The notes beneath the pieces are model-generated. The model was not told the origin of the DNA, made no database searches, and saw only the letters and a list, made by a program, of their open reading frames with translations. A program made the translations under genes and the position numbers. A stretch of 64,000 bases of DNA from Escherichia phage vB_EcoM_PHB13: the sequence record MK573636; one strand, 5' to 3'. This document shows, piece by piece, positions 85 to 44,481 of this stretch; position 1 is the first letter of the stretch, and each line of letters opens with the position of its first letter.

Positions 85-645
85 ATGGTACAGAAAACGT
101 ATAAATTGTATCCGGCTAAGTCTTCAACTGATGCTGTTTTTGAACGAGGTCGTTATTACACTTTCCGTAATGCTGAGTCCGCAGAGGAATTTATCAAACG
201 ATGTCCGCAACATAATAAGTTCTTGTATGACGTGCTTTGTAACGGCTTTAAAGTTCTCACTGTTGATGCGATGGGGCGTGTGTATCTGGTAGAAACTCAT
301 GAGTATGAAGGTGCATCTGTTCTGATTGCTGCAAACGAGCGCAAATACTTTAAACGCATCACTAAAAAGCAGTTTGAAGAAATGAAACCAGTTAAGAAAG
401 AAGAATCTCTGGGAGATCTGATTAACTTGTTTGGTAAAGTTCGCTCGATCTCCTTTGCGATTGAAGATGACATTACTGACAATAAAATCTTTATCAAGAG
501 CGCGGAAGACCTGAAAGAGTTTCTTATTGAAAATAGATTTCGGCTGGAAACCTTTCTTGAAAGTGAAATTATTCGACATGATACTTACGCTAAATTCAGC
601 GCCGATAAAGTAGCTGAACTGAAAGAGATCCAAAAGTCACTTTAA
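85..645 (+). CDS. hypothetical protein, member of repeat-domain paralogous family (one beta-rich domain ending ...ERKYFKRI... plus helical C-terminal tail)
   Basis: ORF track 67..645; start moved to ATG at 85 after SD GAGGATTATATT; shares ERKYFKR motif with 709..1887. Confidence 0.5.
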   Translation: MVQKTYKLYPAKSSTDAVFERGRYYTFRNAESAEEFIKRCPQHNKFLYDVLCNGFKVLTVDAMGRVYLVETHEYEGASVLIAANERKYFKRITKKQFEEMKPVKKEESLGDLINLFGKVRSISFAIEDDITDNKIFIKSAEDLKEFLIENRFRLETFLESEIIRHDTYAKFSADKVAELKEIQKSL

Positions 646-648
646 CAC

Positions 649-683
649 TTGACATGATGAAACGGGAGTAGTAAGATACTCCC
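649..683 (+). promoter_or_regulatory. sigma70-like early promoter (TTGACA / TAAGAT) with inverted repeat GGGAGTA-gtaaga-TACTCCC in spacer/-10 (promoter-early stem-loop type)
   Basis: read directly; identical 27-nt core recurs near 44181 and 44462. Confidence 0.5.
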
Positions 684-708
684 ATTTAAACAACTAGAGG
701 ATTATATT

Positions 709-1887
709 ATGGCTAAATTCTTTGAAGGTCATTACTATGCATTCCGTGAAGGTGGTAAAGATGAGTTTCTAGACTTTTCTCGCTATTCAATTATTCTGAC
801 CGATGCTTCGCGCCGTGGTCATATTCGGGTTGCTGAAATCGTCGAAAAGGGCTTTAAAGTATTAGAAAAAGATGACAACGGTCATGTTATTACTATTGAA
901 GCTGGAGATGTAGTTTATTCCGCTGAGGATATCGTTTATTATTGGGCTACTATGATTATGCACGATGAGCGTAAATACTTTAAACGCATCTCAAAAGAGG
1001 CATACGAAGCGATGAACAAGAAAGAGGATGCAATGCCGACTTACTTTGAAAAAGGTAAATGTTATTCGTTTACACCAGAAGGTTTGCAAGAATTTAAGCG
1101 ATTCTGGGGAGAGCATGATCCAGATCACAAAGAAGCTATGAAACTTGTTGATTTTGTCGAATATGGCTTTTTAGTTGAAGAAGAATTGCACGGATCAGCT
1201 ACCATGATCACCGCGAAAGGTGAAACTGTTAAGGCAGATCGTTTTTGTGATCAATGGGCTTGTGTGTTTGATGGTGGCGAATTTGAATACTTCGCGGAAA
1301 TCACGAAACAACAATTTCATTCTATGCAAGCGGATGGTCAGAGATTTAAAGTAGGTGAACGCTACAAGCCAAATCAGCATAATTTGCCATATTGGTTTAC
1401 CGCTGAAACTGTATCAAGTCATGTTGTTGAAATTGTTCAAAAGCTGGGACAAGGATTTAAGGTGACTAAAGTAGATGATTATGGAAGTGTTGACGCGGTT
1501 GAAATTGATGGTGTAGAATATACACCGAAATCTTTCGGGCTTTGCTGGTATCACTTGATCAGCAATGATGAACGTTATAACTTTGTTGAACTGCCATCTG
1601 AACCGGAAGAAGCACTAGAAGATCATGATCATCTGTCTGAACTGGTTAAACTGTTTGGTGATCTGCCGGATGGTGTAGGCGTGGCGGTAATGGGTGAAGG
1701 TACTGTTATTCGCAACCTGAAAGACCTTAAAAAGTTCTTGATTGACATGCTGCCTAAACTTGATGATAATCTCGATAAAGATATTCAGAATCGCAAAGAA
1801 ATTGTTAAAGATACTGAAAAAGAGATCGAAGAGATTCGAGCAATTCGCCAGAAGGTGAAAGCAGTAAAGAAAAAAGTTAGTGCTTGA
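709..1887 (+). CDS. hypothetical protein, three tandem copies of the family beta-domain plus helical C-terminus
   Basis: ORF track; internal repeats ending DERKYFKRIS / EFEYFAEIT / ERYNFVEL. Confidence 0.6.
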   Translation: MAKFFEGHYYAFREGGKDEFLDFSRYSIILTDASRRGHIRVAEIVEKGFKVLEKDDNGHVITIEAGDVVYSAEDIVYYWATMIMHDERKYFKRISKEAYEAMNKKEDAMPTYFEKGKCYSFTPEGLQEFKRFWGEHDPDHKEAMKLVDFVEYGFLVEEELHGSATMITAKGETVKADRFCDQWACVFDGGEFEYFAEITKQQFHSMQADGQRFKVGERYKPNQHNLPYWFTAETVSSHVVEIVQKLGQGFKVTKVDDYGSVDAVEIDGVEYTPKSFGLCWYHLISNDERYNFVELPSEPEEALEDHDHLSELVKLFGDLPDGVGVAVMGEGTVIRNLKDLKKFLIDMLPKLDDNLDKDIQNRKEIVKDTEKEIEEIRAIRQKVKAVKKKVSA

Positions 1888-1917
1888 CATGCGAAGGGAG
1901 TATGCTATAATACTCCC
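1884..1917 (+). promoter_or_regulatory. early promoter TTGACA-16bp-TATAAT with stem-loop GGGAGTA...TACTCCC
   Basis: read directly. Confidence 0.5.
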
Positions 1918-1941
1918 ACTTAACAACGAGAGGATTATATT

Positions 1942-2436
1942 ATGTGGGTACAAGATGTTTGGTATACTGTAACTAAAGAAAACCTTGACGCATTCAGCGA
2001 CCAATCTTGCGCTAATAGCTCAATTGCTGGTATACTTACTGATGTGTTTGGTGGTGTAGATAAAATTCGTTTTAAAGTTGTTGTTAGTTCGCTGGGTCAG
2101 GTGAAAGATCTTTACACCGAAGATAAAGACCTTGATCTTGAACTTCGTCTTCGTATTGATAATGCAAGTCTAGGTTATTGGTTTGAAGATAACGAATATG
2201 AATACTTCACACCAGCAATTAAAGTTTTTGCGACTAAACTGGAAGCTGTACTGAATCTACGACCAATTAATGTTGACGGCTACATTATCAAAAATATTCA
2301 GGATTGGGAGTTGTATCTAGATCAGGTTATCCGAAATAGTAAGCAGGAAGCCGCTAATAAGAAGCGACAAGAGATTAAACAGCTTAAAGCTGAACTGGAA
2401 GCGGCGGAAAAAGAATTAGCAGAACTGGTAAAATAA
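1942..2436 (+). CDS. hypothetical protein with family-like motif (EYEYFTPAIK) and coiled-coil C-terminus
   Basis: ORF track; SD GAGGATTATATT. Confidence 0.5.
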   Translation: MWVQDVWYTVTKENLDAFSDQSCANSSIAGILTDVFGGVDKIRFKVVVSSLGQVKDLYTEDKDLDLELRLRIDNASLGYWFEDNEYEYFTPAIKVFATKLEAVLNLRPINVDGYIIKNIQDWELYLDQVIRNSKQEAANKKRQEIKQLKAELEAAEKELAELVK

Positions 2437-2444
2437 CTATCAAC

Positions 2445-2468
2445 GAGCGGGAGAAATCCCGCTTTTTC
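2445..2468 (+). terminator. intrinsic terminator-like hairpin AGCGGGA-gaaa-TCCCGCT plus T-run
   Basis: read directly. Confidence 0.45.
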
Positions 2469-2480
2469 ATAGGTGATACA

Positions 2481-4343
2481 ATGGAAAAACTAATCAAAGA
2501 CATTACAGAGATCGCAACGGGTAAAGAAAACGAAGTAAGCAAAGAGAACGCGAACAAAGACGCGCGAACATTCCCGACACGTCGAGATCTGATTGCTGGT
2601 GCTGTGTCTAAACAGATTGCTAAAACCGTGTTACCTGAGCACATCTATAAAGCGCATGTAGACGGTGACATTCATTATCATGATATGGATTATGCACCCG
2701 CTATGCCGTTTACTAACTGCTGTCTTGTTAATCTCAAAGACATGTTAGAGAATGGTTTTAAATTGGGTAGCGCACAAATCGAAAGTCCGAAATCAATCGG
2801 CGTTGCTTGTGCTGTAACCGCTCAAATTATCGCACAGGTGGCAAGTCATCAATATGGCGGGACCACAATCGCAAACATCGACCAGGTGTTAGCGCCGTAT
2901 GTTAAGAAAACATATCATAAACACCTTGCTGATGCCGAAGCCTACGGAATCAAAGCTGATACTCTCTATGCACAAGAGAAAACAGAAAAAGAAACGTTAG
3001 ACGGATATCAGGCGTTGGAATATGAGATCAACACTTTGTTCTCTACCAACGGTCAAACACCTTTTGTGACTTTAACCTTTGGTATGGGTACTAGCTGGGA
3101 AGAAAAACTGATTCAGAAAGCGATCCTGAAAGTTCGAACTAAAGGTTTAGGTAAAGACGGTATAACTCCGGTGTTTCCTAAGCTGGTGATGTTCTTAGAA
3201 GAAGGATTAAACCTTAAACCGGAAGATCCGAACTACGACATTAAGCAACTTGCATTGGAATGTTCTAGTAAGCGTCTTTACCCTGATTATATCTCTGCGA
3301 AGAATAACCGTAGCATCACTGGATCTAGTGTTCCGGTTAGCCCGATGGGTTGTCGTAGCTTCCTGGGTGTGTGGCATAATGATAAAGGCGAGGAAGTATT
3401 AGACGGACGTAATAACTTAGGTGTTGTGACTCTGAATCTTCCGCGTATTGCCCTTATTGCCGCTCGTCGTGCTGGTAAAGCGTCTGTAATGCGCAGAATT
3501 GAGCTATTCGAACAAGAGCTAGCTAATCGTATGCCTATTTGCTTTGATGCGCTCATGAGTCGCGTAGACGCTTTAAAAGGGGCTAAAGCCAATGTTGCTC
3601 CGGTGCTGTATACAGAAGGTGCATTTTTCCGTATTCATCAAAACGATGAAATTTTGGAAGTGTTGAAAGATGGTCGCGCTAGTATCTCTCTTGGGTATAT
3701 TGGTTTACATGAGGTATTGAGCGTCCTGTTTGGTGTTCATCCGTTTGATTCGGAAGATGCGCAGCGATACGGTAAACATATTCTTAAGATCTTGCGTCAT
3801 TATACTGAAAAATGGAAGGATGAAACCGGACTTGGGTTTAGTCTTTACGGTACGCCAGCCGAGAGCCTTTGCTATCGATTTAATCGACTGGATCGAGAGC
3901 AATTTGGTATTGTTAAGGGTGCTACCGATAAAGACTGGTACACCAACTCATTCCACCTTGACGTAGACCGGAAAGTCACACCATTTGAGAAAATCGACTT
4001 TGAGAAAGATTATCACTGGCTGGCGTCCGGTGGCATGATCTCTTATGTTGAGTTCCCAGACATGAAAAACAACCTGAAAGGTCTTGAAACTGTAGTAGAC
4101 TATGCAATGGATAAATTGCACTACTTCGGTGTTAATACTCCTTCTGATGTATGTCATGTATGCGGATCTAATAAGGAAATGAGAGCGACCGAGTCTGGTT
4201 TTGTTTGCCCTGATTGCGGCAATGACAATCTGGAAAAGATGAATGTTATCCGTCGCGTTAGTGGATATCTTGGATCTGTTGATCTGCGTCCATTCAACCA
4301 CGGGAAACACTCCGAGATGGTAAACCGCGTTAAGCACATGTAA
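2481..4343 (+). CDS. nrdD: anaerobic ribonucleoside-triphosphate reductase
   Basis: 620 aa; C-terminal Zn ribbon CHVCG...CPDCG and glycyl-radical motif RRVSGY; T4 NrdD-like. Confidence 0.9.
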   Translation: MEKLIKDITEIATGKENEVSKENANKDARTFPTRRDLIAGAVSKQIAKTVLPEHIYKAHVDGDIHYHDMDYAPAMPFTNCCLVNLKDMLENGFKLGSAQIESPKSIGVACAVTAQIIAQVASHQYGGTTIANIDQVLAPYVKKTYHKHLADAEAYGIKADTLYAQEKTEKETLDGYQALEYEINTLFSTNGQTPFVTLTFGMGTSWEEKLIQKAILKVRTKGLGKDGITPVFPKLVMFLEEGLNLKPEDPNYDIKQLALECSSKRLYPDYISAKNNRSITGSSVPVSPMGCRSFLGVWHNDKGEEVLDGRNNLGVVTLNLPRIALIAARRAGKASVMRRIELFEQELANRMPICFDALMSRVDALKGAKANVAPVLYTEGAFFRIHQNDEILEVLKDGRASISLGYIGLHEVLSVLFGVHPFDSEDAQRYGKHILKILRHYTEKWKDETGLGFSLYGTPAESLCYRFNRLDREQFGIVKGATDKDWYTNSFHLDVDRKVTPFEKIDFEKDYHWLASGGMISYVEFPDMKNNLKGLETVVDYAMDKLHYFGVNTPSDVCHVCGSNKEMRATESGFVCPDCGNDNLEKMNVIRRVSGYLGSVDLRPFNHGKHSEMVNRVKHM

Positions 4344-4348
4344 TTTTC

Positions 4349-4381
4349 AGCCGATCCGAAAGGGTCGGCTTTTTCGTTTTT
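4349..4381 (+). terminator. intrinsic terminator AGCCGATCC-gaaa-GGGTCGGCT plus T-run
   Basis: read directly. Confidence 0.55.
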
Positions 4382-4386
4382 GGGTG

Positions 4387-4414
4387 TTGACAACCTGATT
4401 AGCTAATGTATAAT
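4387..4414 (+). promoter_or_regulatory. sigma70-like promoter TTGACA-16/17bp-TATAAT
   Basis: read directly. Confidence 0.45.
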
Positions 4415-4443
4415 GCTCACATCGAAAACAACGAGAGGACAAC

Positions 4444-4986
4444 ATGATGATGATGTTTTGTGTACTGAGCAAAGAAGTTAAACTTCGTAAACTGGAAATT
4501 GGCGATGGTGTTGTTGTTAAAATGCACGCTAGCACATTGGCTAGTTTTAATTTAAAGGAAAGTTTTTTTATTAGAGGAACGGTGGTTAATGTCTGCTGGA
4601 GTCAAGGCGAAGGAATCCGTAGCTTTTGCGTAATTGACGATGATAATAACCTGTATGTGATTCGCTATCATAATAATTCTGTATTGGTCTATACCGACAA
4701 TTCACGAGAATTATATACTCTTGAATTTGTTAAGCGTACTGATTGCGACCGATTTGTTCGTGCTTATGAAGAAGATGGCTGTTTTGCGACTGAAACAGAA
4801 ACAAATGAATATGTTCCTATGGAAGTAGGAGCAGAAATTAAACACAAGATCACGGATCGTATTTTTAAGGTTGTGGCGGTTGCTCATACTCAATTTGTAG
4901 CGCAAGCGCCGGATGAAGAATTTATTATCTACAATATTGGTAATGCAAGTTCTCATTTTCATAATGTACTATATCGCGACCTTTGA
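4444..4986 (+). CDS. hypothetical protein
   Basis: ORF track, 180 aa, no recognised motif. Confidence 0.45.
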   Translation: MMMMFCVLSKEVKLRKLEIGDGVVVKMHASTLASFNLKESFFIRGTVVNVCWSQGEGIRSFCVIDDDNNLYVIRYHNNSVLVYTDNSRELYTLEFVKRTDCDRFVRAYEEDGCFATETETNEYVPMEVGAEIKHKITDRIFKVVAVAHTQFVAQAPDEEFIIYNIGNASSHFHNVLYRDL

Positions 4987-5003
4987 TAATGTGTGAGGTG
5001 AAT

Positions 5004-5531
5004 ATGAAATCATTAAACCGTAAGCGTAAAGCACAACGACACAAAGAACTAGCTAAAAAGATTGCTATTGAACTGGTTGAGCGTGAGGATAGCTATTTGT
5101 CTACGGGTCGTTTGTATACATTCCATGCATTGATTGATGGTAAGCCAGTGTTGCATAATCATGATTGTTTGGCACTGTTTCACGAAATCAAACCAATTCA
5201 TCGTGAATGGGATGACAACAAAGCAAAAGGTCAATATTTCCTTACTTGTTCGTGTGGTCATGCTGGATGTGCTGGATATTGGGAACCTGTTACTATCCGT
5301 GAGAAAAATGATACCATTCAATGGGTCGCCCGTACCCGCGATGGTTATGATAAAGGTGCTGATGGTACTGGAGATAACGTAGTTTACTTTAATCGTGATT
5401 GGTATTATATGGCGCGATGTATGATCCTGTTTTATCTTGACTCGATGCCGTATGAATATTTCAGTTTCCAGAATGGGACCGAACTGACAGGGAAGGAATG
5501 GTCTGACTACATTCGAAAAAATTTAAAATAA
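5004..5531 (+). CDS. hypothetical protein (Cys/His-rich: CSCGHAGCAGY)
   Basis: ORF track 4983..5531; start moved to ATG after SD GAGGTGA. Confidence 0.45.
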   Translation: MKSLNRKRKAQRHKELAKKIAIELVEREDSYLSTGRLYTFHALIDGKPVLHNHDCLALFHEIKPIHREWDDNKAKGQYFLTCSCGHAGCAGYWEPVTIREKNDTIQWVARTRDGYDKGADGTGDNVVYFNRDWYYMARCMILFYLDSMPYEYFSFQNGTELTGKEWSDYIRKNLK

Positions 5532-5535
5532 ATGC

Positions 5536-5564
5536 TTGACGGGGATCGCGAGATCCCCTATACT
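5536..5564 (+). promoter_or_regulatory. early promoter TTGACG / TATACT with stem-loop GGGGATC-gcga-GATCCCC in spacer
   Basis: read directly. Confidence 0.45.
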
Positions 5565-5606
5565 ATATTCATCAAGACGAGATACAACTTTACAGGAGAA
5601 TCAAAT

Positions 5607-5759
5607 ATGTGGACTTTACTGATTTGGGAAACTGAAAACGCACAAGTAGAAATCCGTGAATACGAATACCTAAGCCCAGCTTATCTATTAGCATCTCGCG
5701 GTGGTTACTATAAAGCGCAGATTGTAAACGAGTTCGGGGTAATTGAATATGAGTTCTGA
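5607..5759 (+). CDS. hypothetical small protein (50 aa)
   Basis: in-frame ATG within track ORF 5532..5759 after SD AGGAGAATCA. Confidence 0.3.
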   Translation: MWTLLIWETENAQVEIREYEYLSPAYLLASRGGYYKAQIVNEFGVIEYEF

Positions 5760-6252
5760 TACATACGGCAAACTACGCTATGCCGATATTAAAGATTGTG
5801 ATATGGTTAACGGTGAGGGAGTGAGAGTCTCCCTTTACGTTACCGGATGTTCACACGCATGTGATGGTTGCTTTAATGCTAGCCTACTCAATCCTAAGAA
5901 CGGGGAACCATTCACCGATGATACAATGGGATTGATTCTGGATCTGCTTAGACCTGATTTTATTCAGGGGCTAACATTCTTAGGTGGCGATCCACTGTAT
6001 AAACGCAATTTAAAGGGTGTACAGCGGATCATCGATGAAGTAAAATCATGGATGCCAAATAAAGATATTTGGCTATGGTCTGGTTATACCCTTGACCAAT
6101 TGAATGATGAGCAAAGAAAAATTGTAGAATCAGTTGACATGTTCATCGATGGGCGTTATATTAAAGATATGCCAACGAAGAAGCCGTGGCGGGGGTCTGA
6201 CAATCAAGTACAATACAAGATTGTTAATAGTATTCCAGTGAAAATTATTTGA
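5749..6252 (+). CDS. nrdG: anaerobic ribonucleotide reductase activating protein (radical SAM)
   Basis: Cys cluster GCSHACDGC (C-x3-C-x2-C); position next to nrdD. Confidence 0.8.
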   Translation: MSSDTYGKLRYADIKDCDMVNGEGVRVSLYVTGCSHACDGCFNASLLNPKNGEPFTDDTMGLILDLLRPDFIQGLTFLGGDPLYKRNLKGVQRIIDEVKSWMPNKDIWLWSGYTLDQLNDEQRKIVESVDMFIDGRYIKDMPTKKPWRGSDNQVQYKIVNSIPVKII

Positions 6253-6262
6253 GGTGATTATT

Positions 6263-6790
6263 ATGGAATGGGAAGTTGGTAAAACTTACAAGATTGAATG
6301 CGAAGCGTCGAAAGCCGAACTGACTAAATTTTCGTCGTCTATTAACAGATGTATTGTTGACTTGTTGGCTGGTCGCCCGTTTAGGGTAGAAGACCTTGAC
6401 GATGATGGTGATGTTAGAGAAATTACTATTATTGGTAGTAATTTCGACTCTATGACGTTAAAAGAATCCCCTATTGGCTGTTCCGGTGTGTGGTTTTGGT
6501 CGGGTGAGCGTCGTTTCTTTACCGAAGTTACTATTGAACCTAAGATTCCAGATTCGGAAGAAAAAGAAGAAGACCTAACTTTAGAACGCCTGGGTCTGCT
6601 TATGGAAGCCTACGACATTCAGTTGATCGATAAGATGGGGTTACATAATAGCATTGCCAAAATTACTACCCTAGAAGGTATTAAGAGCGTGCTTGATGGT
6701 ATGCCTAGCCGGATCGGTGCTATCCGAGAATACAAGCAAACGCGCGACCGTATGATCCAATTAGAATCACGTATCAAAAATGAGAGATGA
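6263..6790 (+). CDS. hypothetical protein, repeat-domain family (MEWEVGKTY... / ERRFFTEV)
   Basis: ORF track 6254..6790, start moved to ATG. Confidence 0.55.
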   Translation: MEWEVGKTYKIECEASKAELTKFSSSINRCIVDLLAGRPFRVEDLDDDGDVREITIIGSNFDSMTLKESPIGCSGVWFWSGERRFFTEVTIEPKIPDSEEKEEDLTLERLGLLMEAYDIQLIDKMGLHNSIAKITTLEGIKSVLDGMPSRIGAIREYKQTRDRMIQLESRIKNER

Positions 6791-6794
6791 TATT

Positions 6795-7259
6795 ATGAAA
6801 TGGGAAGCTGGTAAGACCTATGCGTGGAAAGATGTAAAAGATGCAAACCAATTTTTTAAATGGTATGATGTTGATTATTTGAAATATCTGAGATTACCGT
6901 TTAAAGTTGCGTCGGTTGATGCGAAAAAAGGATACGTGCGGTCTGTTTATCTTCATGATGGAACTTATATGAGTTCAACCGATGTAGGTCTATCTTGTTG
7001 GTTTCTGGATCATGACCGTAGCAGATTTGAAGAAATTATTATTCCAGAAGAATCTAAATTAATTGATCTTCTCAAGTTGGCGATGGATAATTATAAAATC
7101 CGCTTTGAATGCAAATCACATGCGGCTATCGGTGCTAACGCCTTGCGTCATATCTCCAGTTTTGAAGAGTTGAAAGATTTTCTTGACAAAATGCCGGAAA
7201 GGGTGCAAGCTATACAGGAAGCAGAGAAAGCATTAAACGAACTTGATAAAATCGGTTAA
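6795..7259 (+). CDS. hypothetical protein, repeat-domain family (MKWEAGKTYAWKD...)
   Basis: ORF track 6780..7259, start moved to ATG after SD. Confidence 0.55.
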   Translation: MKWEAGKTYAWKDVKDANQFFKWYDVDYLKYLRLPFKVASVDAKKGYVRSVYLHDGTYMSSTDVGLSCWFLDHDRSRFEEIIIPEESKLIDLLKLAMDNYKIRFECKSHAAIGANALRHISSFEELKDFLDKMPERVQAIQEAEKALNELDKIG

Positions 7260-7271
7260 GGGGAATATATT

Positions 7272-8096
7272 ATGAAATGGGAAATTGGTAAAACTTACAC
7301 CTGGAAAGACGAAAACGCTAAAACTGAGTTTATTACTAACGGAGAAGGTGTTCTTTCTCCACTTAACAGCGATATTAGTGCAGCTATTGGTGACAAGCCA
7401 TTTACCATCATCGAGATCGAGGGTAACGGTTGGATTGATGCAATAGAGCTAGACGGTGTTTATCATACGGCGAAAACTGCTACAGGAAAAGACATTTGGA
7501 AGTCAACATATTTGTTTAGTCCATTTGATAGAAAATTCTTTCGTGAAGTTGAAGAAGTTCCCCAGAAATGGGAAGTTGGTAAAACTTATACTTGGAAAGA
7601 TATTAAGGCTATGACCGACTTCTGTCATTATGCCGAAAACGTATCTAACCTTAATTATGTTATTGCACGAGCAATAAATTATAGACCTTTTACTGTTAAA
7701 AATGTTCGTCCATGTGGGCAAATTGATGTAATTGAAATTGATGGTAAAGACCATACTCTAATGAGCGCAACCGAAGATAGAGACCATAAAGGAACTAGCT
7801 GGTTTATTGATTCTGATAGAAAATTCTTTCGTGAAGTAGAAGAATTGGAAGTTATAACCACTGATTCTAAGATCGTTGGACAGTTGAAACGTCTGTTTAG
7901 TAGTCGTTACGGCCTGACAATGGTTAAATTTGGCGAAGCAAATGAAGGTAAAACCTTTGAACGTTTCGATGATTTCATTTCGGCACTTGACAAGATGGAT
8001 GAAATCATGCAAGATCGCCAGAAGATTAAAGACCTTCAAGAAGACATTAAACGTCGTGAAGTTGAATTTTTGATTGGTAAAGAGCGAGGATGGTAA
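7272..8096 (+). CDS. hypothetical protein, repeat-domain family with two tandem domain copies (WEIGKTYTWKD ... DRKFFREVEE, twice)
   Basis: ORF track; about 23-nt identical DNA repeat near 7528 and 7812. Confidence 0.6.
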   Translation: MKWEIGKTYTWKDENAKTEFITNGEGVLSPLNSDISAAIGDKPFTIIEIEGNGWIDAIELDGVYHTAKTATGKDIWKSTYLFSPFDRKFFREVEEVPQKWEVGKTYTWKDIKAMTDFCHYAENVSNLNYVIARAINYRPFTVKNVRPCGQIDVIEIDGKDHTLMSATEDRDHKGTSWFIDSDRKFFREVEELEVITTDSKIVGQLKRLFSSRYGLTMVKFGEANEGKTFERFDDFISALDKMDEIMQDRQKIKDLQEDIKRREVEFLIGKERGW

Positions 8097-8097
8097 T

Positions 8098-8583
8098 ATG
8101 TTTGTTGCTGGCGTGACCTATCAGTGGAAAGATAAGAAAACGAGAGAAGATTTTGCAAACTTTAGCGTTGCAAATGATGCAATAGCAGAGTTTATCGGCG
8201 ACCGTCCATTTAAAGTTATTGCATTTGATCACCACCATGCATCGGATGTGAATTATGTTTCTGTGATTGAAATTGATGGCACGGTATACACCTGCTGCAA
8301 TGTTGATGATGTACGGGAATACGCGCACAACTGGTTTTTGCAATCAGAAGAACGTCATTTTAAAGTGGTATCGGCAGAGCTATCATCCGAAGCAATGTTG
8401 GAACAATTTTTCAACAACTACGAAGTTTCTGTACGTCGCTATGGCGAAGAAGAAGTGTTTAAAATCGATGATTACAATCAGTTTAAACGAGTATTCGCCA
8501 CTAAGTTACAGCGTGATTTTGAACGCGAGAAGCGCATCAAGGAACTGGAAGAAGAATTGGAAAGATTAAAGGCTGAGAAATGA
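8098..8583 (+). CDS. hypothetical protein, repeat-domain family (GVTYQWKDKK ... ERHFKVV), coiled-coil C-terminus
   Basis: ORF track 8074..8583, start moved to ATG after SD GAGGATGG. Confidence 0.55.
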   Translation: MFVAGVTYQWKDKKTREDFANFSVANDAIAEFIGDRPFKVIAFDHHHASDVNYVSVIEIDGTVYTCCNVDDVREYAHNWFLQSEERHFKVVSAELSSEAMLEQFFNNYEVSVRRYGEEEVFKIDDYNQFKRVFATKLQRDFEREKRIKELEEELERLKAEK

Positions 8584-8849
8584 TCGAGATATACGGTATA
8601 CCGAAAGAGGCTTATCATTGTTATGGTTGTATTAGTGCAATGAAGCTACTGGATGATCTGGGTATTCCGTATACACTTAAACCAGTATTCAAGCAGGTCG
8701 GGGTTGACATTATTCCCGACCGTGATATGATTGAAGAACTGGCGGGGAGGCTAAACTCAAAGAGCCTCCGGTTTGTATACCCCCAGATATTCATTGACAA
8801 CGAGCACATTGGAGGCTATAAAGAACTGAGGGCGATTTATGATTATTGA
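8580..8849 (+). CDS. nrdC: glutaredoxin/thioredoxin-like protein (NrdC/NrdH-like)
   Basis: 89 aa, CxxC motif CYGC near N-terminus, ...HIGGY...L motif; resembles T4 NrdC. Confidence 0.6.
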   Translation: MIEIYGIPKEAYHCYGCISAMKLLDDLGIPYTLKPVFKQVGVDIIPDRDMIEELAGRLNSKSLRFVYPQIFIDNEHIGGYKELRAIYDY

Positions 8850-8997
8850 GAATTTAGTTTCGGTGTTCATTATTGCTTTATTTGCTATAATGACTTTACC
8901 GTTGAAGAAGTGTAAACACTGTAACGGAACAGGATTGCGTGGTGATGGGTGTTGCGCTCATTGTCATGGATCTGGTAAAGTAAGTATCATTAAGTAA
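8839..8997 (+). CDS. small membrane-anchored peptide with two DnaJ-type CxxCxGxG zinc-finger motifs (52 aa)
   Basis: not in track (<60 aa); N-terminal hydrophobic helix then CKHCNGTG...CAHCHGSG. Confidence 0.3.
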   Translation: MIIENLVSVFIIALFAIMTLPLKKCKHCNGTGLRGDGCCAHCHGSGKVSIIK

Positions 8998-9018
8998 TTC
9001 TTGAGTGAGGAATATATT

Positions 9019-9306
9019 ATGTTAGTACACAATGCAATCGCACACATGGTTTATTCTCGATTTGGGCGCAGGGAAGAAATCAATATTACCGACGCAGATT
9101 TAGATCTGATGCAAGTAGAAGGTCAGACATATCTGAAAAATAACGGCGTGAATATCGGTAAAGCGCGTGTGCGTGAATTGTTGGTTGAATATATTCTCTC
9201 TGAATTTGGCATTAGTGCTTTCGGTGTGAAAGAGCTTGCACCTAAGCGCGAAATTTCTGATAAAATGATCAAGAAATGCCAGAAAGCACGACGTAAGGGT
9301 TTCTAA
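9019..9306 (+). CDS. hypothetical protein
   Basis: ORF track 9001..9306; ATG after SD GAGGAATATATT. Confidence 0.45.
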   Translation: MLVHNAIAHMVYSRFGRREEINITDADLDLMQVEGQTYLKNNGVNIGKARVRELLVEYILSEFGISAFGVKELAPKREISDKMIKKCQKARRKGF

Positions 9307-10775
9307 TGAAGATTGAAACATTAATCGCATTGCCAGCGGCGGGGAAAACTGATGCTATACTTTCCCACGTCCTAGAGACAAAAGAAAAAGCGGTTATTGC
9401 TTCGCCATCTCGTGTTTTAAGTGAACAATCTTACAATAAGTTTAAAAGAATGGGCGGTCGTGCTGTCTTGATCGATAGCACAAGACTAAGAAGCCTTAAG
9501 ACAGTGCAAGCGTCGATAATGCAATCAGTTAAAGACGGTGCTGATGTGATATTCATTACACATACAGCGTTATCTAATATGGAACGTTCAAAAATGTTTG
9601 GTGAATATGCTCTTTACATTGATGAAGTTCCTCAACTGGTTGAATTTAATGAGTATCCGTTTAAGTCTAATCTTGAACTTATCACGAAGCATTGCGAACC
9701 AATCGCCGACGAATCGGAATGCCTACAGAACTTAGTTCTAAAAGACTCTGAGAAGGCCGCTATCAAAGAAAAGATAGAAAGTGCAAAGGATGGTACTGAT
9801 ATGATCGATTCTTCTCTTAGAGGGCTTTATGAGGCGTTATTAGAGAAGAAAATCAACGTTATGGTAAAACATAACGAAGGACACCGGAAGAATGGGTCGA
9901 AAATTGTTTTCTTGAACGATAACAAACACGGTACGTGGGGAGACTTTAAAAAGGTTACGATAGCATGTGCAAATCTCTTTGATACATATAGCGGGAAGTA
10001 TCTACGATACTATGCAAATTGCGATTTTGTTCCGAGTGCGCTAGAATCCAGACTATATTTCAAAGAGTATAAAAATACAGATAGAGTTAATATCATCCTT
10101 ATGACGGACTCCGAACGATGGTCGCGTCACCAGTCAGAAACAAACAATACCTTTGAACGTCTTGTTGATATGGTTAAAAATGAATGTGGTGATGACTTCA
10201 TTTATACCGTGAATCGGGACCGTGAAGCGTGCACAAATGGTATTGGCGAGCGGATACCTTACGGATCTTATGGTCTTAACTCTTACATTCATCATAAAAA
10301 TGTTGCTGTGATGTTCAGCTTTAACCCTCAACGATGGGAGATTGATATTTTAAAAGGTCTTGCTAATAGTTGTGATCTCCCGACAAATGAGTTTTTGAAA
10401 GCGCGTCATGTGTCTGATTATCTGGAACCAGCATTTCAATTATGTTTGCGTTGTAACCTGAGAGACAACGAGAGCAAGGAGAATGTTAATCTATATGTTC
10501 CTGATTGGGCGTTGGTAGATTATCTAAAAACGTTTCTACCTAATGCCAATGTAATAACAGACAGAATGATTCCGCTAGAATGTGGTGAGCGTAAAGGGCG
10601 AAAATCATTTAAAAAGATGTTCGATTTTAACGAGCAAGAGAATGCAAGATTTAACGGATTTAAGTACCGCATGAAGAAAAAGGGAAAAACTCTTGATCCG
10701 TCTGACGGTGAATCAGTAGAGATGGTTAGAGTGTGGATAACTAAGCAAAGAAAGTATAATGGCAATGGGGAATAG
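9306..10775 (+). CDS. P-loop NTPase of unknown function (Walker A ALPAAGKT, Walker B LYIDEV)
   Basis: ORF track 489 aa; Walker motifs read directly; AGA/AGG-rich codon usage unlike neighbours. Confidence 0.55.
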   Translation: MKIETLIALPAAGKTDAILSHVLETKEKAVIASPSRVLSEQSYNKFKRMGGRAVLIDSTRLRSLKTVQASIMQSVKDGADVIFITHTALSNMERSKMFGEYALYIDEVPQLVEFNEYPFKSNLELITKHCEPIADESECLQNLVLKDSEKAAIKEKIESAKDGTDMIDSSLRGLYEALLEKKINVMVKHNEGHRKNGSKIVFLNDNKHGTWGDFKKVTIACANLFDTYSGKYLRYYANCDFVPSALESRLYFKEYKNTDRVNIILMTDSERWSRHQSETNNTFERLVDMVKNECGDDFIYTVNRDREACTNGIGERIPYGSYGLNSYIHHKNVAVMFSFNPQRWEIDILKGLANSCDLPTNEFLKARHVSDYLEPAFQLCLRCNLRDNESKENVNLYVPDWALVDYLKTFLPNANVITDRMIPLECGERKGRKSFKKMFDFNEQENARFNGFKYRMKKKGKTLDPSDGESVEMVRVWITKQRKYNGNGE

Positions 10776-23896: not shown

Positions 23897-23916
23897 TATC
23901 TAGAGAGGATTATATT

Positions 23917-24234
23917 ATGGATAAGAAACCAACAAGTTTAGAAGAAGCACACAGCTTGATTCAAGAAGCAATGAAGACAGTTATCCAGGAACTGATAATT
24001 GTTGATGAAGAGGGAGAACATCATATTGTCTATATTCATAATGTTGAATACGATCCAGACACTAAAGGTATTGTGGTCGACTACTCCACGCCGTCAGATC
24101 GTGATGTGGTATATCCACACGTCATTAAGGCGTTAACCGCGCAGATCAAAGAAGCAGAAGAAAAGTTGAAAAAAGAAACTTTCTGGTATAAACTCAAGAC
24201 CTTTGTTATGCGTGTAGTTGGGGGCTATGTATGA
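23917..24234 (+). CDS. hypothetical protein (occupies the T4 gene 40 position)
   Basis: ORF track; position only. Confidence 0.35.
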   Translation: MDKKPTSLEEAHSLIQEAMKTVIQELIIVDEEGEHHIVYIHNVEYDPDTKGIVVDYSTPSDRDVVYPHVIKALTAQIKEAEEKLKKETFWYKLKTFVMRVVGGYV

Positions 24235-25643
24235 TTAAAACTATCTTTTCACAGTTGATTTACAATGGCGCATTCTTTACGAATGTATGGCCTCACCTTA
24301 AAGCGGACTACTTCACCGAAGACGAAGAAAAACTGATTTATAAGCTGATTAAAAAGCACGTAGACGAATATTCCAATATTCCTACGCCAACAGCATTACA
24401 GATTGCTTTAGACAAGGAGAGAGGCAATCAGACAACATATGAAGGGGCTAAAACTCTTCTTGATTCGCTTGAGAATACACCGGAAGACCTTGATTGGTTA
24501 ATGAAGGAAACCGAAAAATTTATTCGTGACCGTGCCATGTATAATGCAATGTCACGGGCGCTAGAGATTCAGGCGAACGCACAACTACCAAAAGAGAAAC
24601 AGAATAAGAAATTGCCGAGTGAGGGTGCTATTCCTGAGATCATGCAGGAAGCACTATCCATTACGTTTGATTCTGATGTAGGTCATGACTGGTTTAATGA
24701 CTTTGAAAAACGATTCTTGCTATATCAGACTAAGGCGAATAAGATCCCGTTTAAGCTGCCGATGTTGAATAAAATCACGAAAGGAGGTGCGGAAAGAAAA
24801 ACGCTAAATGTGTTGCTTGCTGGTGTAAACGTTGGTAAATCGCTTGGCTTGTGTTCTCTTGCTGCGGATTATATGGAATGTGGTTATGATGTATTGTATA
24901 TATCAATGGAGATGGCAGAGCATGTCGTAGCAAAACGTATCGACGCAAACTTGCTTGACATTACATTAGATGAATTGGATAATGGTAATGTTTCTTTTGC
25001 GGAATATTCCGCACGCATGAAGCGTGTTAAGAATAAGAAGATCGGAGATCGTCCGGTTGGAAAATTGATGATCAAGCAGTATCCGACTGGTGGCGCAAAC
25101 TCCAATCACTTTGAGGCGTTAATGAATGAATTGCGACTCAAGAAACAGTTTAAACCTGATGTTGTGATTGTTGACTATCTGGGGATTTGCGCATCGTCTC
25201 GCTTGCGTGTATACTCTGAAAATAGTTACACACTAGTTAAGGCGATTGCGGAAGAACTGCGAGGATTTTTTGTTAAGTGGGATGTTGTTGGTTGGACTGC
25301 GGCACAGACTACCCGCGCGGGTTGGGATGCTTCCGACCTTAACATGAGTGATACCGCTGAATCAGCAGGTCTTCCGGCTACTGCCGACTTTATGTTGGGT
25401 GTTATCGAAACCGAAGACCTGGCTAAAATGGGCGTCCAACTCATGAAGCAGATCAAGTCTCGTTACGGTGATAAGAACTATTATTCACGGTTTAACGTTG
25501 GTGTGAAGAAAGGCAATCAGCGTTGGTATGAAGTACCAAACCAGATCGCAGATCAGGAGAATACACAAGTTAAACCACAAAGCGCACAGCAAGCCGAGAA
25601 ACGCGAAAAACTCGACGAGCTAGCAAATACCATGACTTTCTAA
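24231..25643 (+). CDS. 41: replicative DNA helicase gp41 (DnaB-like)
   Basis: Walker A AGVNVGKS, RecA-like core; synteny. Confidence 0.85.
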   Translation: MIKTIFSQLIYNGAFFTNVWPHLKADYFTEDEEKLIYKLIKKHVDEYSNIPTPTALQIALDKERGNQTTYEGAKTLLDSLENTPEDLDWLMKETEKFIRDRAMYNAMSRALEIQANAQLPKEKQNKKLPSEGAIPEIMQEALSITFDSDVGHDWFNDFEKRFLLYQTKANKIPFKLPMLNKITKGGAERKTLNVLLAGVNVGKSLGLCSLAADYMECGYDVLYISMEMAEHVVAKRIDANLLDITLDELDNGNVSFAEYSARMKRVKNKKIGDRPVGKLMIKQYPTGGANSNHFEALMNELRLKKQFKPDVVIVDYLGICASSRLRVYSENSYTLVKAIAEELRGFFVKWDVVGWTAAQTTRAGWDASDLNMSDTAESAGLPATADFMLGVIETEDLAKMGVQLMKQIKSRYGDKNYYSRFNVGVKKGNQRWYEVPNQIADQENTQVKPQSAQQAEKREKLDELANTMTF

Positions 25644-25649
25644 TAAAAT

Positions 25650-25666
25650 GCGCCCTACGGGGCGCT
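25650..25666 (+). other. GC-rich hairpin GCGCCC-tac-GGGGCGC downstream of gene 41 (no T-run)
   Basis: read directly. Confidence 0.3.
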
Positions 25667-25693
25667 GGTGAATGATTTGATAGGAGATATAAC

Positions 25694-26329
25694 ATGATCG
25701 CTAATGCTTTACCGCCAAAATGGATCGTAAGTCGCTTTTATACTCTCAAGGAAGGTAACGCACCTGATGGTCGTCCGATCCGAGATCTGTTTCTGGAGAT
25801 GACTACCGCCGAAGCACAATTTTATAATGATCTGACAGACGATAAGCCGTTTCTTGTAAATTCTGTGGATCTTGATGGTAATGTTACGTCAATTATCGCA
25901 CATGGTGGGGAAGTGAAAAATATTACTTCTCTGCGTGAACACGGTTGGGAAATTGCTTGTGTATTTCCTGCGGATGTACGCGGATTCTTTGATGAGGTAT
26001 CTGATATTAAAGTAAATGCACTAGAACCATATGACGAGATCCCACCACTGAAAGAAGAAAAAGAGTTGACACCGGAAGATGTAGATAGTACACTACACCC
26101 AGACCTATTTAAGAAGATTAGCGGTTTATGGACTGTTACCCTGCATCCAACCGCATTAGGTCTAGAATTGGGTATGCCAACTTATTCTGATATTGATAAT
26201 TGGACTAAGCATATTGATAAAGATGTTGAAAAACAGCGAAATAATGCTAAAATGCAACTTAAAGAGAAACGAAAAGATCTTGAACGACAACTGAAAGAAA
26301 CCAAACATTTGCTTTCTACGTTCGCTTGA
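25694..26329 (+). CDS. hypothetical protein, likely distant member of the repeat-domain family (VDLDGNV...ADVRGFFDEV)
   Basis: ORF track; motif similarity to the 6263..8583 cluster. Confidence 0.45.
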   Translation: MIANALPPKWIVSRFYTLKEGNAPDGRPIRDLFLEMTTAEAQFYNDLTDDKPFLVNSVDLDGNVTSIIAHGGEVKNITSLREHGWEIACVFPADVRGFFDEVSDIKVNALEPYDEIPPLKEEKELTPEDVDSTLHPDLFKKISGLWTVTLHPTALGLELGMPTYSDIDNWTKHIDKDVEKQRNNAKMQLKEKRKDLERQLKETKHLLSTFA

Positions 26330-44446: not shown

Positions 44447-44481
44447 TTGACACCGGATTAAGGGAGTAGTAAGATACTCCC
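44447..44481 (+). promoter_or_regulatory. early promoter TTGACA with stem-loop GGGAGTA-gtaaga-TACTCCC (third copy)
   Basis: read directly. Confidence 0.5.

Follow-up and report, generated by a model that had tools for sequence, protein, structure and literature searches.

The first 9 kb of a 64,000-nucleotide stretch of DNA from Escherichia phage vB_EcoM_PHB13 (sequence record MK573636; the whole stretch is called the window) carries small open reading frames (ORFs) on either side of nrdD and nrdG, which raises the question of what these genes are and what the phage uses them for. In an earlier sequence-only reading, seven of these ORFs were described as sharing a module of about 90 amino acids (aa). 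They belong to the GoF/Frd.2/MotB.1 family, whose members are small proteins of T4-type phages and which has undergone a lineage-specific expansion in Krischvirus, to nine genes and twelve modules versus three members known in T4. Ever since the goF/comC-alpha suppressors of rho mutants were first obtained, GoF has puzzled geneticists. The family itself is already known, and the features unreported so far are its expansion, the tandem barrels, the alleles of the head cassettes and a possible link to PinA.

Expansion of the GoF/Frd.2/MotB.1 family in Krischvirus

The first 9 kb of the window shared 95-97% identity with the genomes of 57 Krischvirus phages, which are T4-type coliphages resembling RB49, and 96.9% with RB49 itself. 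All seven ORFs were confirmed and matched RefSeq genes RB49p059-057 and RB49p051-048, the counterparts in order being p059, p058 (named frd.2), p057 and then p051-p048. The RefSeq label "goF mRNA metabolism modulator" is given to p059 and p058 (o85 and o709 here), while the remaining five are "hypothetical protein". The described arrangement of two clusters flanking nrdD/nrdG was correct for these seven, but two members had been overlooked, dc2 (25694-26329) and a gene cut by the window start (1-70). The genes of the family are listed below (HMM, profile hidden Markov model).

1-70, + strand: 3' end (last 22 codons and stop) of a module-only gene, orthologue of RB49p060 (90 aa), cut by the window start
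85-645, + strand: o85, one GoF-type module (about 133-396) and a helical C-terminal domain; RefSeq goF; phrog_8944 at E 1.6e-97; HMM 83 bits
709-1887, + strand: o709 (frd.2 in RB49), modules at 709-1020, 1030-1332 and 1333-1623, then a predicted alpha-beta-beta unit and a 55-aa helix
1942-2436, + strand: o1942, one divergent module (variable core about 1960-2260) and a helical tail; cross-hit to phrog_3710
6263-6790, + strand: o6263, one module (variable core about 6280-6580) and a C-terminal domain; phrog_5347 at E 1.8e-66; HMM 102 bits
6795-7259, + strand: o6795, one module (variable core about 6820-7060) and a nearly invariant C-terminal domain
7272-8096, + strand: o7272, modules at 7272-7562 (conserved) and 7563-7862 (variable core about 7600-7870) and a C-terminal domain; HMM 102 and 109 bits
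8098-8583, + strand: o8098, one module (variable core about 8110-8410) and a C-terminal domain; phrog_5347 at E 7.8e-55; its stop overlaps the nrdH start (ATGA)
25694-26329, + strand: dc2, the eighth complete member in the window; RB49p021 "Dc2"; directly 3' of helicase gene 41

The shared module was found in all seven ORFs by pairwise BLASTP, by a window-only HMM and by PHROG profiles. Pairwise BLASTP among the ORFs gave 25-31% identity over 90-170 aa (40-55 bits). The window-only profile, made from nine modules cut from six ORFs (o1942 left out), scored every training module at 83-109 bits, with three domains in o709 (E 1e-24 to 1e-30) and two in o7272. PHROG profiles, which are built from other phages, matched all seven ORFs: o85 and o709 were placed in phrog_8944 (goF), the four downstream ORFs in phrog_5347 and o1942 in phrog_15067, with cross-matches to phrog_622, 3710, 5804 and 13003. 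Since the window-only profile and the profiles from other phages agree, the motif pattern first noticed reflects real homology, and low-complexity coincidence is ruled out by the profile scores together with the independent PHROG profiles. The copy number of one to three modules per protein was also borne out, with three in o709, two in o7272 and one in the others, by the HMM, by phrog_622 (the T4 GoF/Frd.2 profile, matching three stretches in o709 and two in o7272) and by the AlphaFold model of o709.

The outlier was o1942, which reached E 0.015 with the window-only profile excluding it and E 4.5e-13 with a broad family profile excluding it and its orthologues; because of the latter value, its N-terminal domain (N-domain) is regarded as a true but divergent member. 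The translation of positions 1-70 ends in ...LLPCDRILFRAVQLVK before the stop codon, and full-length RB49p060 matched the window-only profile at E 1.2e-14. For dc2, whose ORF was first picked out at 25676-26326, a match at E 2.6e-7 was obtained with the window-only profile, which was not trained on it, and its C-terminal domain could be aligned with that of the other members. A six-frame scan of the window and the rest of the RB49 genome added no members beyond dc2 and the RB49p060 orthologue to the seven ORFs, so the genome total is nine genes and twelve modules. In the whole Krischvirus genome, no family member was found at the sites syntenic with T4 goF (the genes 39-dexA interval) or T4 frd.2 (by frd, gene 32).

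The statement that the module has no known domain stood for Pfam and NCBIfam, scans of which gave only sub-threshold noise with the window ORFs, but not for PHROGs and RefSeq, where o85 and o709 already have the labels goF or frd.2; the module is the N-terminal domain of the GoF/Frd.2/MotB.1 family. Pfam FRD2 (PF03197) matched no window ORF even at E <= 1; T4 Frd.2 itself scored 133 bits. Among 933 six-frame ORFs from 112 kb of T4, the window-only profile found only GoF (E 3.9e-13), Frd.2 (7e-4) and MotB.1 (0.024), and the corresponding values with the broad profile were 4e-20, 2e-12 and 1e-5. T4 GoF and Frd.2 form the core of phrog_622, which o709 and o7272 match at about 1e-19, and the full length of T4 GoF matches phrog_5347, to which the downstream cluster belongs. 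Kim et al. 2025 (PMC12152347) described these T4 proteins as a family of early proteins with an N-domain of "LSm-like fold", a flexible linker and variable C-terminal domains (C-domains); neither RB49 nor tandem domains nor expansions of paralogues are mentioned in that paper.

Searched against 1.84 billion representative proteins, the window-only profile retrieved 96 clusters at E <= 1e-3, with the T4 GoF cluster (P0076) at 7.8e-6. Re-scoring left 86 genuine clusters, of which 74 carry a single module, 10 carry two and 2 carry three. The broader profile did not match five large proteins with repeats (904-1721 aa), which the window-only profile had hit at E 5e-12 to 9e-5; these were rejected as false positives. 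A word-indexed homologue search returned close Krischvirus relatives only. Five consecutive family genes with two to three modules each were found at 3920-9569 of an unrelated metagenomic 71-kb T4-like contig (L016, Logan SRR14300940_297), directly upstream of a segE-like gene and nrdD, and this array is the source of the three-module representative P0039, indicating that nrdD-side arrays and tandem modules are not peculiar to Krischvirus. Genes with SIR2, NADAR, HD and TM2 domains lie just upstream of that array. Seven "hypothetical proteins" per Krischvirus genome can now be assigned to the family.

Predicted barrels and divergent alleles

AlphaFold2 models were made for o6795 (from a 77-sequence alignment) and o709. 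The o6795 model (predicted local distance difference test, pLDDT, 88.7) consists of a strand, two helices and four strands that form a small barrel, followed by a helix, a hairpin, a helix and a long terminal helix. The o709 model (pLDDT 78.8; predicted template modelling score, pTM, 0.37) repeats this barrel topology three times before a hairpin unit and a helix of 55 residues, and the barrels are not confidently packed on each other. An Sm-like pseudo-ring of the three o709 barrels was considered and is unsupported at this pTM; for GoF, AlphaFold 3 likewise gave no confident multimers (PMC12152347). In these models each protein is shown as one to three modules predicted to fold independently as SH3-like beta-barrels (strand, two helices, four strands). 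After the barrel, a short linker, an alpha-beta-beta-alpha unit and a long C-terminal helix are predicted for all members except the module-only gene, o1942 not being included in this statement. A small profile of the C-terminal domain matched neither the o1942 tail nor the tails of T4 GoF and Frd.2. Both models contain the organisation predicted for the GoF family, namely a five-stranded bent antiparallel N-domain, a linker and a C-domain, and the hydrophobic core positions are invariant in 77 relatives.

The closest structural neighbours were SH3 barrels of FeoA type, matching the result of Kim et al. 2025 (PMC12152347), and judged from the models they add no support for a specifically Sm-like nature. 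Among predicted viral structures, Foldseek gave 50 matches at E <= 1e-3. Every named one came from a phage, mostly of T4 type and from a wide range of hosts, and hardly any has been characterised; a Foldseek search of the o709 model against the PDB gave nothing below E 0.01. The modules were mostly acidic (9 of the 11 in complete window genes, with net charge -3 to -10 and isoelectric point 4.3-5.8), the o85 module being the only basic one by net charge, a crude proxy for the surface. The C-terminus had been described as helical and often coiled-coil; it is helical in the models, but a coiled coil is backed only for o709 (heptad shuffle test, p 0.02).

Homologue searches returned orthologues of o6795 and o1942 with identical tails and very different heads. 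The 9-kb region was compared in nine Krischvirus genomes picked for gaps in megablast alignments, such gaps being present in 38 of 58 records. The mean pairwise nucleotide difference was about 2% in nrdD, nrdG and nrdH and about 3% in the C-domains of o6795 and o7272 (2.8% each), and it was 22-31% in the modules of o1942, o6263, o6795, o7272 (second module) and o8098. Within o6795, the N-terminal domain differed by 26% versus 2.8% in the C-terminal domain, and within o7272 the values were 3.9% for the first module, 31% for the second and 2.8% for the C-terminal domain. The borders of the variable segments were sharp, at about 1960-2260, 6280-6580, 6820-7060, 7600-7870 and 8110-8410. In the genus, five modules occur as allelic cassettes that are old and have sharp borders, next to C-terminal domains that hardly vary. 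All three o709 modules and the first module of o7272 are instead conserved, at 84-96% identity.

All orthologues were intact ORFs throughout the nine genomes. In the variable modules, the nonsynonymous difference (pN) was 0.17-0.29, the synonymous difference (pS) 0.32-0.53 and their rate ratio (dN/dS) 0.26-0.39, versus dN/dS of 0-0.16 in the tails and 0.02-0.09 in the nrd genes. Recent positive selection is unsupported, with dN/dS below 1 and pS raised, and since synonymous divergence is raised too, the alleles are old and exchanged rather than products of recent bursts of selection. The term "fast-diversifying" therefore held for the five N-terminal modules as deeply divergent alleles beside tails and neighbours that are 97-98% identical, but not in the sense of recent positive selection. 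Gene conversion between paralogues was also ruled out as the source of the alleles, because identity within a locus (at least 38-56%) is higher than between paralogues (at most 38%), except for the o7272 module pair at 47%. By these substitution patterns, the variable modules appear to be under weaker but real purifying selection, as old allelic lineages moved by recombination.

Patches of conserved nucleotide sequence between paralogues were found at the module 5' ends (32 nt, 78-94%) and 3' ends (43-50 nt, 78-86%). These end patches and the constant tails may serve as crossover sites for homologous exchange, and tandem duplication together with exchange at the patches and in the tail would give rise to multi-module proteins and allele swaps. 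Two genes unrelated to the family between nrdD and nrdG, orfA (4444-4986; phrog_14838) and orfB (4983/5004-5531; phrog_8242), also have deeply divergent alleles, with minimum aa identity of 0.54 and 0.48 and a mean nucleotide difference of 15-22% versus 2% in the flanking nrd genes. A literature search on hypervariability or anti-defence in Krischvirus found nothing relevant.

Promoter cassettes and neighbouring sites

Near-identical promoter and Shine-Dalgarno (SD) cassettes had been reported before several members. They were found before o709 and o1942, and only the SD part precedes o85; none is present before the four downstream genes. The sites are as follows (PeSL, promoter-early stem-loop).

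72-87, + strand: SD cassette of o85, AGAGGATTATATTATG
649-708, + strand: PeSL-type cassette before o709, TTGACA-17-TAAGAT, with stem GGGAGTA/TACTCCC across the -10 box and SD AGAGGATTATATT
1884-1941, + strand: PeSL-type cassette before o1942, TTGACA-16-TATAAT (12/12), with stem and SD as before o709; a GEC-3S promoter is annotated at the same place
4349-4443: PeSL of the terminator-upstream type before orfA, with a terminator hairpin (AGCCGATCC...GGGTCGGCT and T-run) after nrdD, TTGACA-16-TATAAT (12/12) and leader AACAACGAGAGGA
5536-5564, + strand: promoter-like site, TTGACG-17-TATACT; a GEC-3S promoter is annotated at the equivalent site

The string common to o709 and o1942 is TTGACA...GGGAGTA...TA(A/T)(G/A)AT-ACTCCC...AACAAC-N-AGAGGATTATATT-ATG. 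In phages RB49 and phi1, PeSLs were described as strong early promoters and as recombination sites for the shuffling of ORFans, and the plastic loci to which they were linked include nrdD (Arbiol et al. 2010, PMC2839356). Sigma-70-like boxes, a stem-loop, an SD, an ORFan next to it and a plastic region occur together at 649-708, 1884-1941 and 4349-4443, and by these motifs the cassettes are shown to correspond to the published PeSL elements. Further GGGAGTA...TACTCCC stems on the + strand were observed at about 44184 and 44447-44480, one of them in TTGACACCGGATTAAGGGAGTAGTAAGATACTCC, which is almost identical to the o709 cassette. The exact leader AGAGGATTATATTATG also occurs at 23904-23919, before a gene 40-like ORF (23917-24234) upstream of helicase gene 41, indicating that it is a general strong translation start and not specific to the family.

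The four downstream genes follow nrdG closely, with gaps of no more than 12 nt, and the end of o8098 overlaps nrdH. The promoter-like site nearest to them, at 5536-5564, probably drives orfC-nrdG-o6263-o6795-o7272-o8098-nrdH; the four genes would then be co-transcribed with nrdG and nrdH, and the upstream genes would be driven by the PeSL early-promoter cassettes. The description as an early-gene family is plausible from the cassettes of o709 and o1942 and from T4 GoF, an abundant early protein made at about 20,000 copies per cell. In orfC (5532-5759) the last 50 residues match Pfam DUF7170 (E 2.4e-17), and its start codon is uncertain because only a 153-nt ORF is annotated there in RefSeq. 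Between gene 41 and dc2, a G+C-rich hairpin (GCGCCCTACGGGGCGC) was found at about 25640-25693, and the adjacency of these two genes is curious since the T4 GoF(D25Y) mutant acts on gene 41 mRNA.

Possible functions and comparison with known systems

The N-domain of T4 PinA, which binds the host Lon protease and blocks degradation (PMC8835725), is probably a distant relative of the barrel at superfamily level only, judging from profile and model comparisons. One viral structural neighbour was annotated "protease inhibitor" (Foldseek E 3e-4), and alignment of the Pin family against the 77-sequence family alignment gave an hhalign probability of 87% (E 3.7e-6) over 73 columns covering the whole N-domain. 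Pfam PF10465 (Inhibitor_I24) matched no window ORF, and no T4 pin orthologue was recognised in a Pin profile search of the Krischvirus genome. If true, the kinship would be the first link of the family to a protein with a defined biochemical target.

The best explanation overall, with a probability of about 55%, is an expansion of the GoF family in which the barrels are interchangeable binding heads on a constant tail and act early on host turnover. The heads would bind host or phage macromolecules, and the constant tail may dimerise or carry a common activity. The proteins would act stoichiometrically early in infection, adjusting host RNA or protein turnover, and would be dispensable in standard laboratory hosts. 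Analogies for such a mechanism may be taken from GoF(D25Y), which stabilises mRNA, and from PinA, which binds and inhibits Lon. In a tentative and rather unlikely extension, the "variable head, constant tail" arrangement would mean that co-circulating phages exchange barrel cassettes, and duplicate them in tandem, so that a shared C-terminal module for dimerisation or effector action is directed to different host factors. The result would be a polymorphic repertoire of binders under balancing selection, with PinA and GoF as specialised offshoots; candidate targets would then be Lon-type proteases, RNA decay enzymes and strain-specific immunity proteins. The earlier suggestion of host-takeover effectors or decoys is a guess.

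Several points weigh against this explanation. Wild-type members of the family are not known to have a binding partner or an activity, and pull-downs with T4 GoF recovered GoF alone. Dimerisation of the tail is only proposed, and the heptad pattern is significant in o709 alone. The putative early timing is taken from promoter motifs and from the T4 homologues. The magnitudes of divergence are biased upward because the nine genomes were picked for megablast gaps. For the PinA link, hhalign of Pin against the window-only modules gave a probability of 28%, the HMM search with the window-only profile against T4 was not significant (E 0.97), and the conserved C-terminal motif of PinA is absent from the window proteins.

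Other explanations share part of this evidence. In one of them the modules would be LSm/Hfq-like RNA-binding domains. The phage would then use the proteins to chaperone RNA or to stabilise mRNA, which is what Kim et al. 2025 proposed for GoF, and the multi-module ones would mimic parts of an Sm ring. The increased reporter mRNA half-life with GoF(D25Y), which is mutated in the barrel, the five-stranded bent sheet common to Sm proteins, and the position of dc2 directly 3' of gene 41, whose mRNA is affected by GoF(D25Y), are all consistent with this. However, wild-type GoF and MotB.1 have only slight effects, the helices lie between strands 1 and 2 and not at the N-terminus as in Sm/Hfq, and no Sm/Hfq neighbours were found among the structures. 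The o709 barrels form no arc, 9 of the 11 modules are acidic and offer no basic RNA-binding surface by net charge (a crude proxy), and the 40-60% aa divergence between alleles is unexpected for the surface of a general RNA chaperone. Because of the acidic modules, the lack of Sm/Hfq neighbours or ring-like packing, the weak wild-type effects and the allelic divergence, RNA chaperoning is possible but not favoured, and we regard it as rather unlikely.

A role as counter-defence or decoy proteins, in which each variable head neutralises or evades a different sensor of strain-specific E. coli immunity or prophage exclusion, would fit the polymorphism without direct support and is considered doubtful. 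Several divergent alleles are kept per locus on constant tails within a genus that is 95-97% identical, the T4 homologues can be dispensed with in laboratory strains, the surrounding region is hyperplastic and holds many exchangeable cassettes, and the proteins are acidic; but the literature searched yielded no homologues among known anti-defence proteins, dN/dS stays below 1 everywhere, and the conservation of the o709 modules and the first o7272 module (84-96%) is unlike the prediction of an arms race. Least likely by far is that the genes are mostly neutral passengers, ORFan cassettes moved by PeSL-mediated and homology-driven recombination whose diversity reflects relaxed constraint. Such hitch-hiking would agree with the association with PeSLs and the plastic nrdD neighbourhood, with the divergent alleles of the unrelated neighbours orfA and orfB and with the dispensability of the T4 homologues. 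It is made unlikely by the intact orthologues in all nine genomes, by dN/dS of 0.26-0.39 in modules and at most 0.16 in tails, and by the breadth of the family, which persists in many T4-type genera; the invariant hydrophobic core across 77 relatives and the high copy number of T4 GoF also stand against it.

Krischvirus provides natural experiments that T4 lacks, with nine paralogues, proteins of one, two or three barrels, and five loci with several deeply divergent barrel alleles on an identical tail. Near-isogenic phages carrying divergent barrel alleles therefore give direct experimental access to what the barrel recognises.

Among known systems, the cassettes resemble the PeSLs of RB49 and phi1 in the strong promoter of sigma-70 type, the stem-loop over the -10 box and the conserved SD before ORFans. 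The cassettes precede only part of the family, and the borders of the allele exchanges in the downstream cluster lie inside coding sequence and not at PeSLs. T4 PinA shares the overall plan, its N-domain varying more than its conserved helical C-domain, and pin lies beside gene 49 and nrdD in T4, the same genome neighbourhood. Between strands 1 and 2, PinA has a much shorter helical insert than the window barrels. Generic SH3-like barrels, including FeoA, the DtxR/IdeR C-domain, Tudor (PcrA/UvrD C-terminus), KOW (NusG, EF-P domain I), the CarD N-domain and the Mib repeats of Mind bomb, share the five-stranded bent antiparallel barrel; tandem arrays occur in the Mib repeats, and many of these domains are adaptors that bind proteins or nucleic acids.

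The closest system is T4 GoF (ComC-alpha)/Frd.2/MotB.1, represented by PHROGs 622, 8944, 13003 and 2980, with Pfam FRD2 covering Frd.2 only and, unlike for Frd.2, matching no window ORF. The N-terminal barrel of about 90 aa is homologous at the level of sequence profiles and is followed by a short linker and a small C-terminal domain; the proteins are of comparable size and mostly acidic, and they are borne by T4-type phages in non-essential early regions. Unlike T4, where three genes are known, Krischvirus has nine, located around nrdD/nrdG and after gene 41 instead of at the goF, motB and frd loci. In some of its proteins two or three barrels stand in tandem. Its C-terminal domain, predicted as alpha-beta-beta-alpha and a long helix, exceeds those of the T4 family in length, and its barrels show allelic cassette polymorphism.

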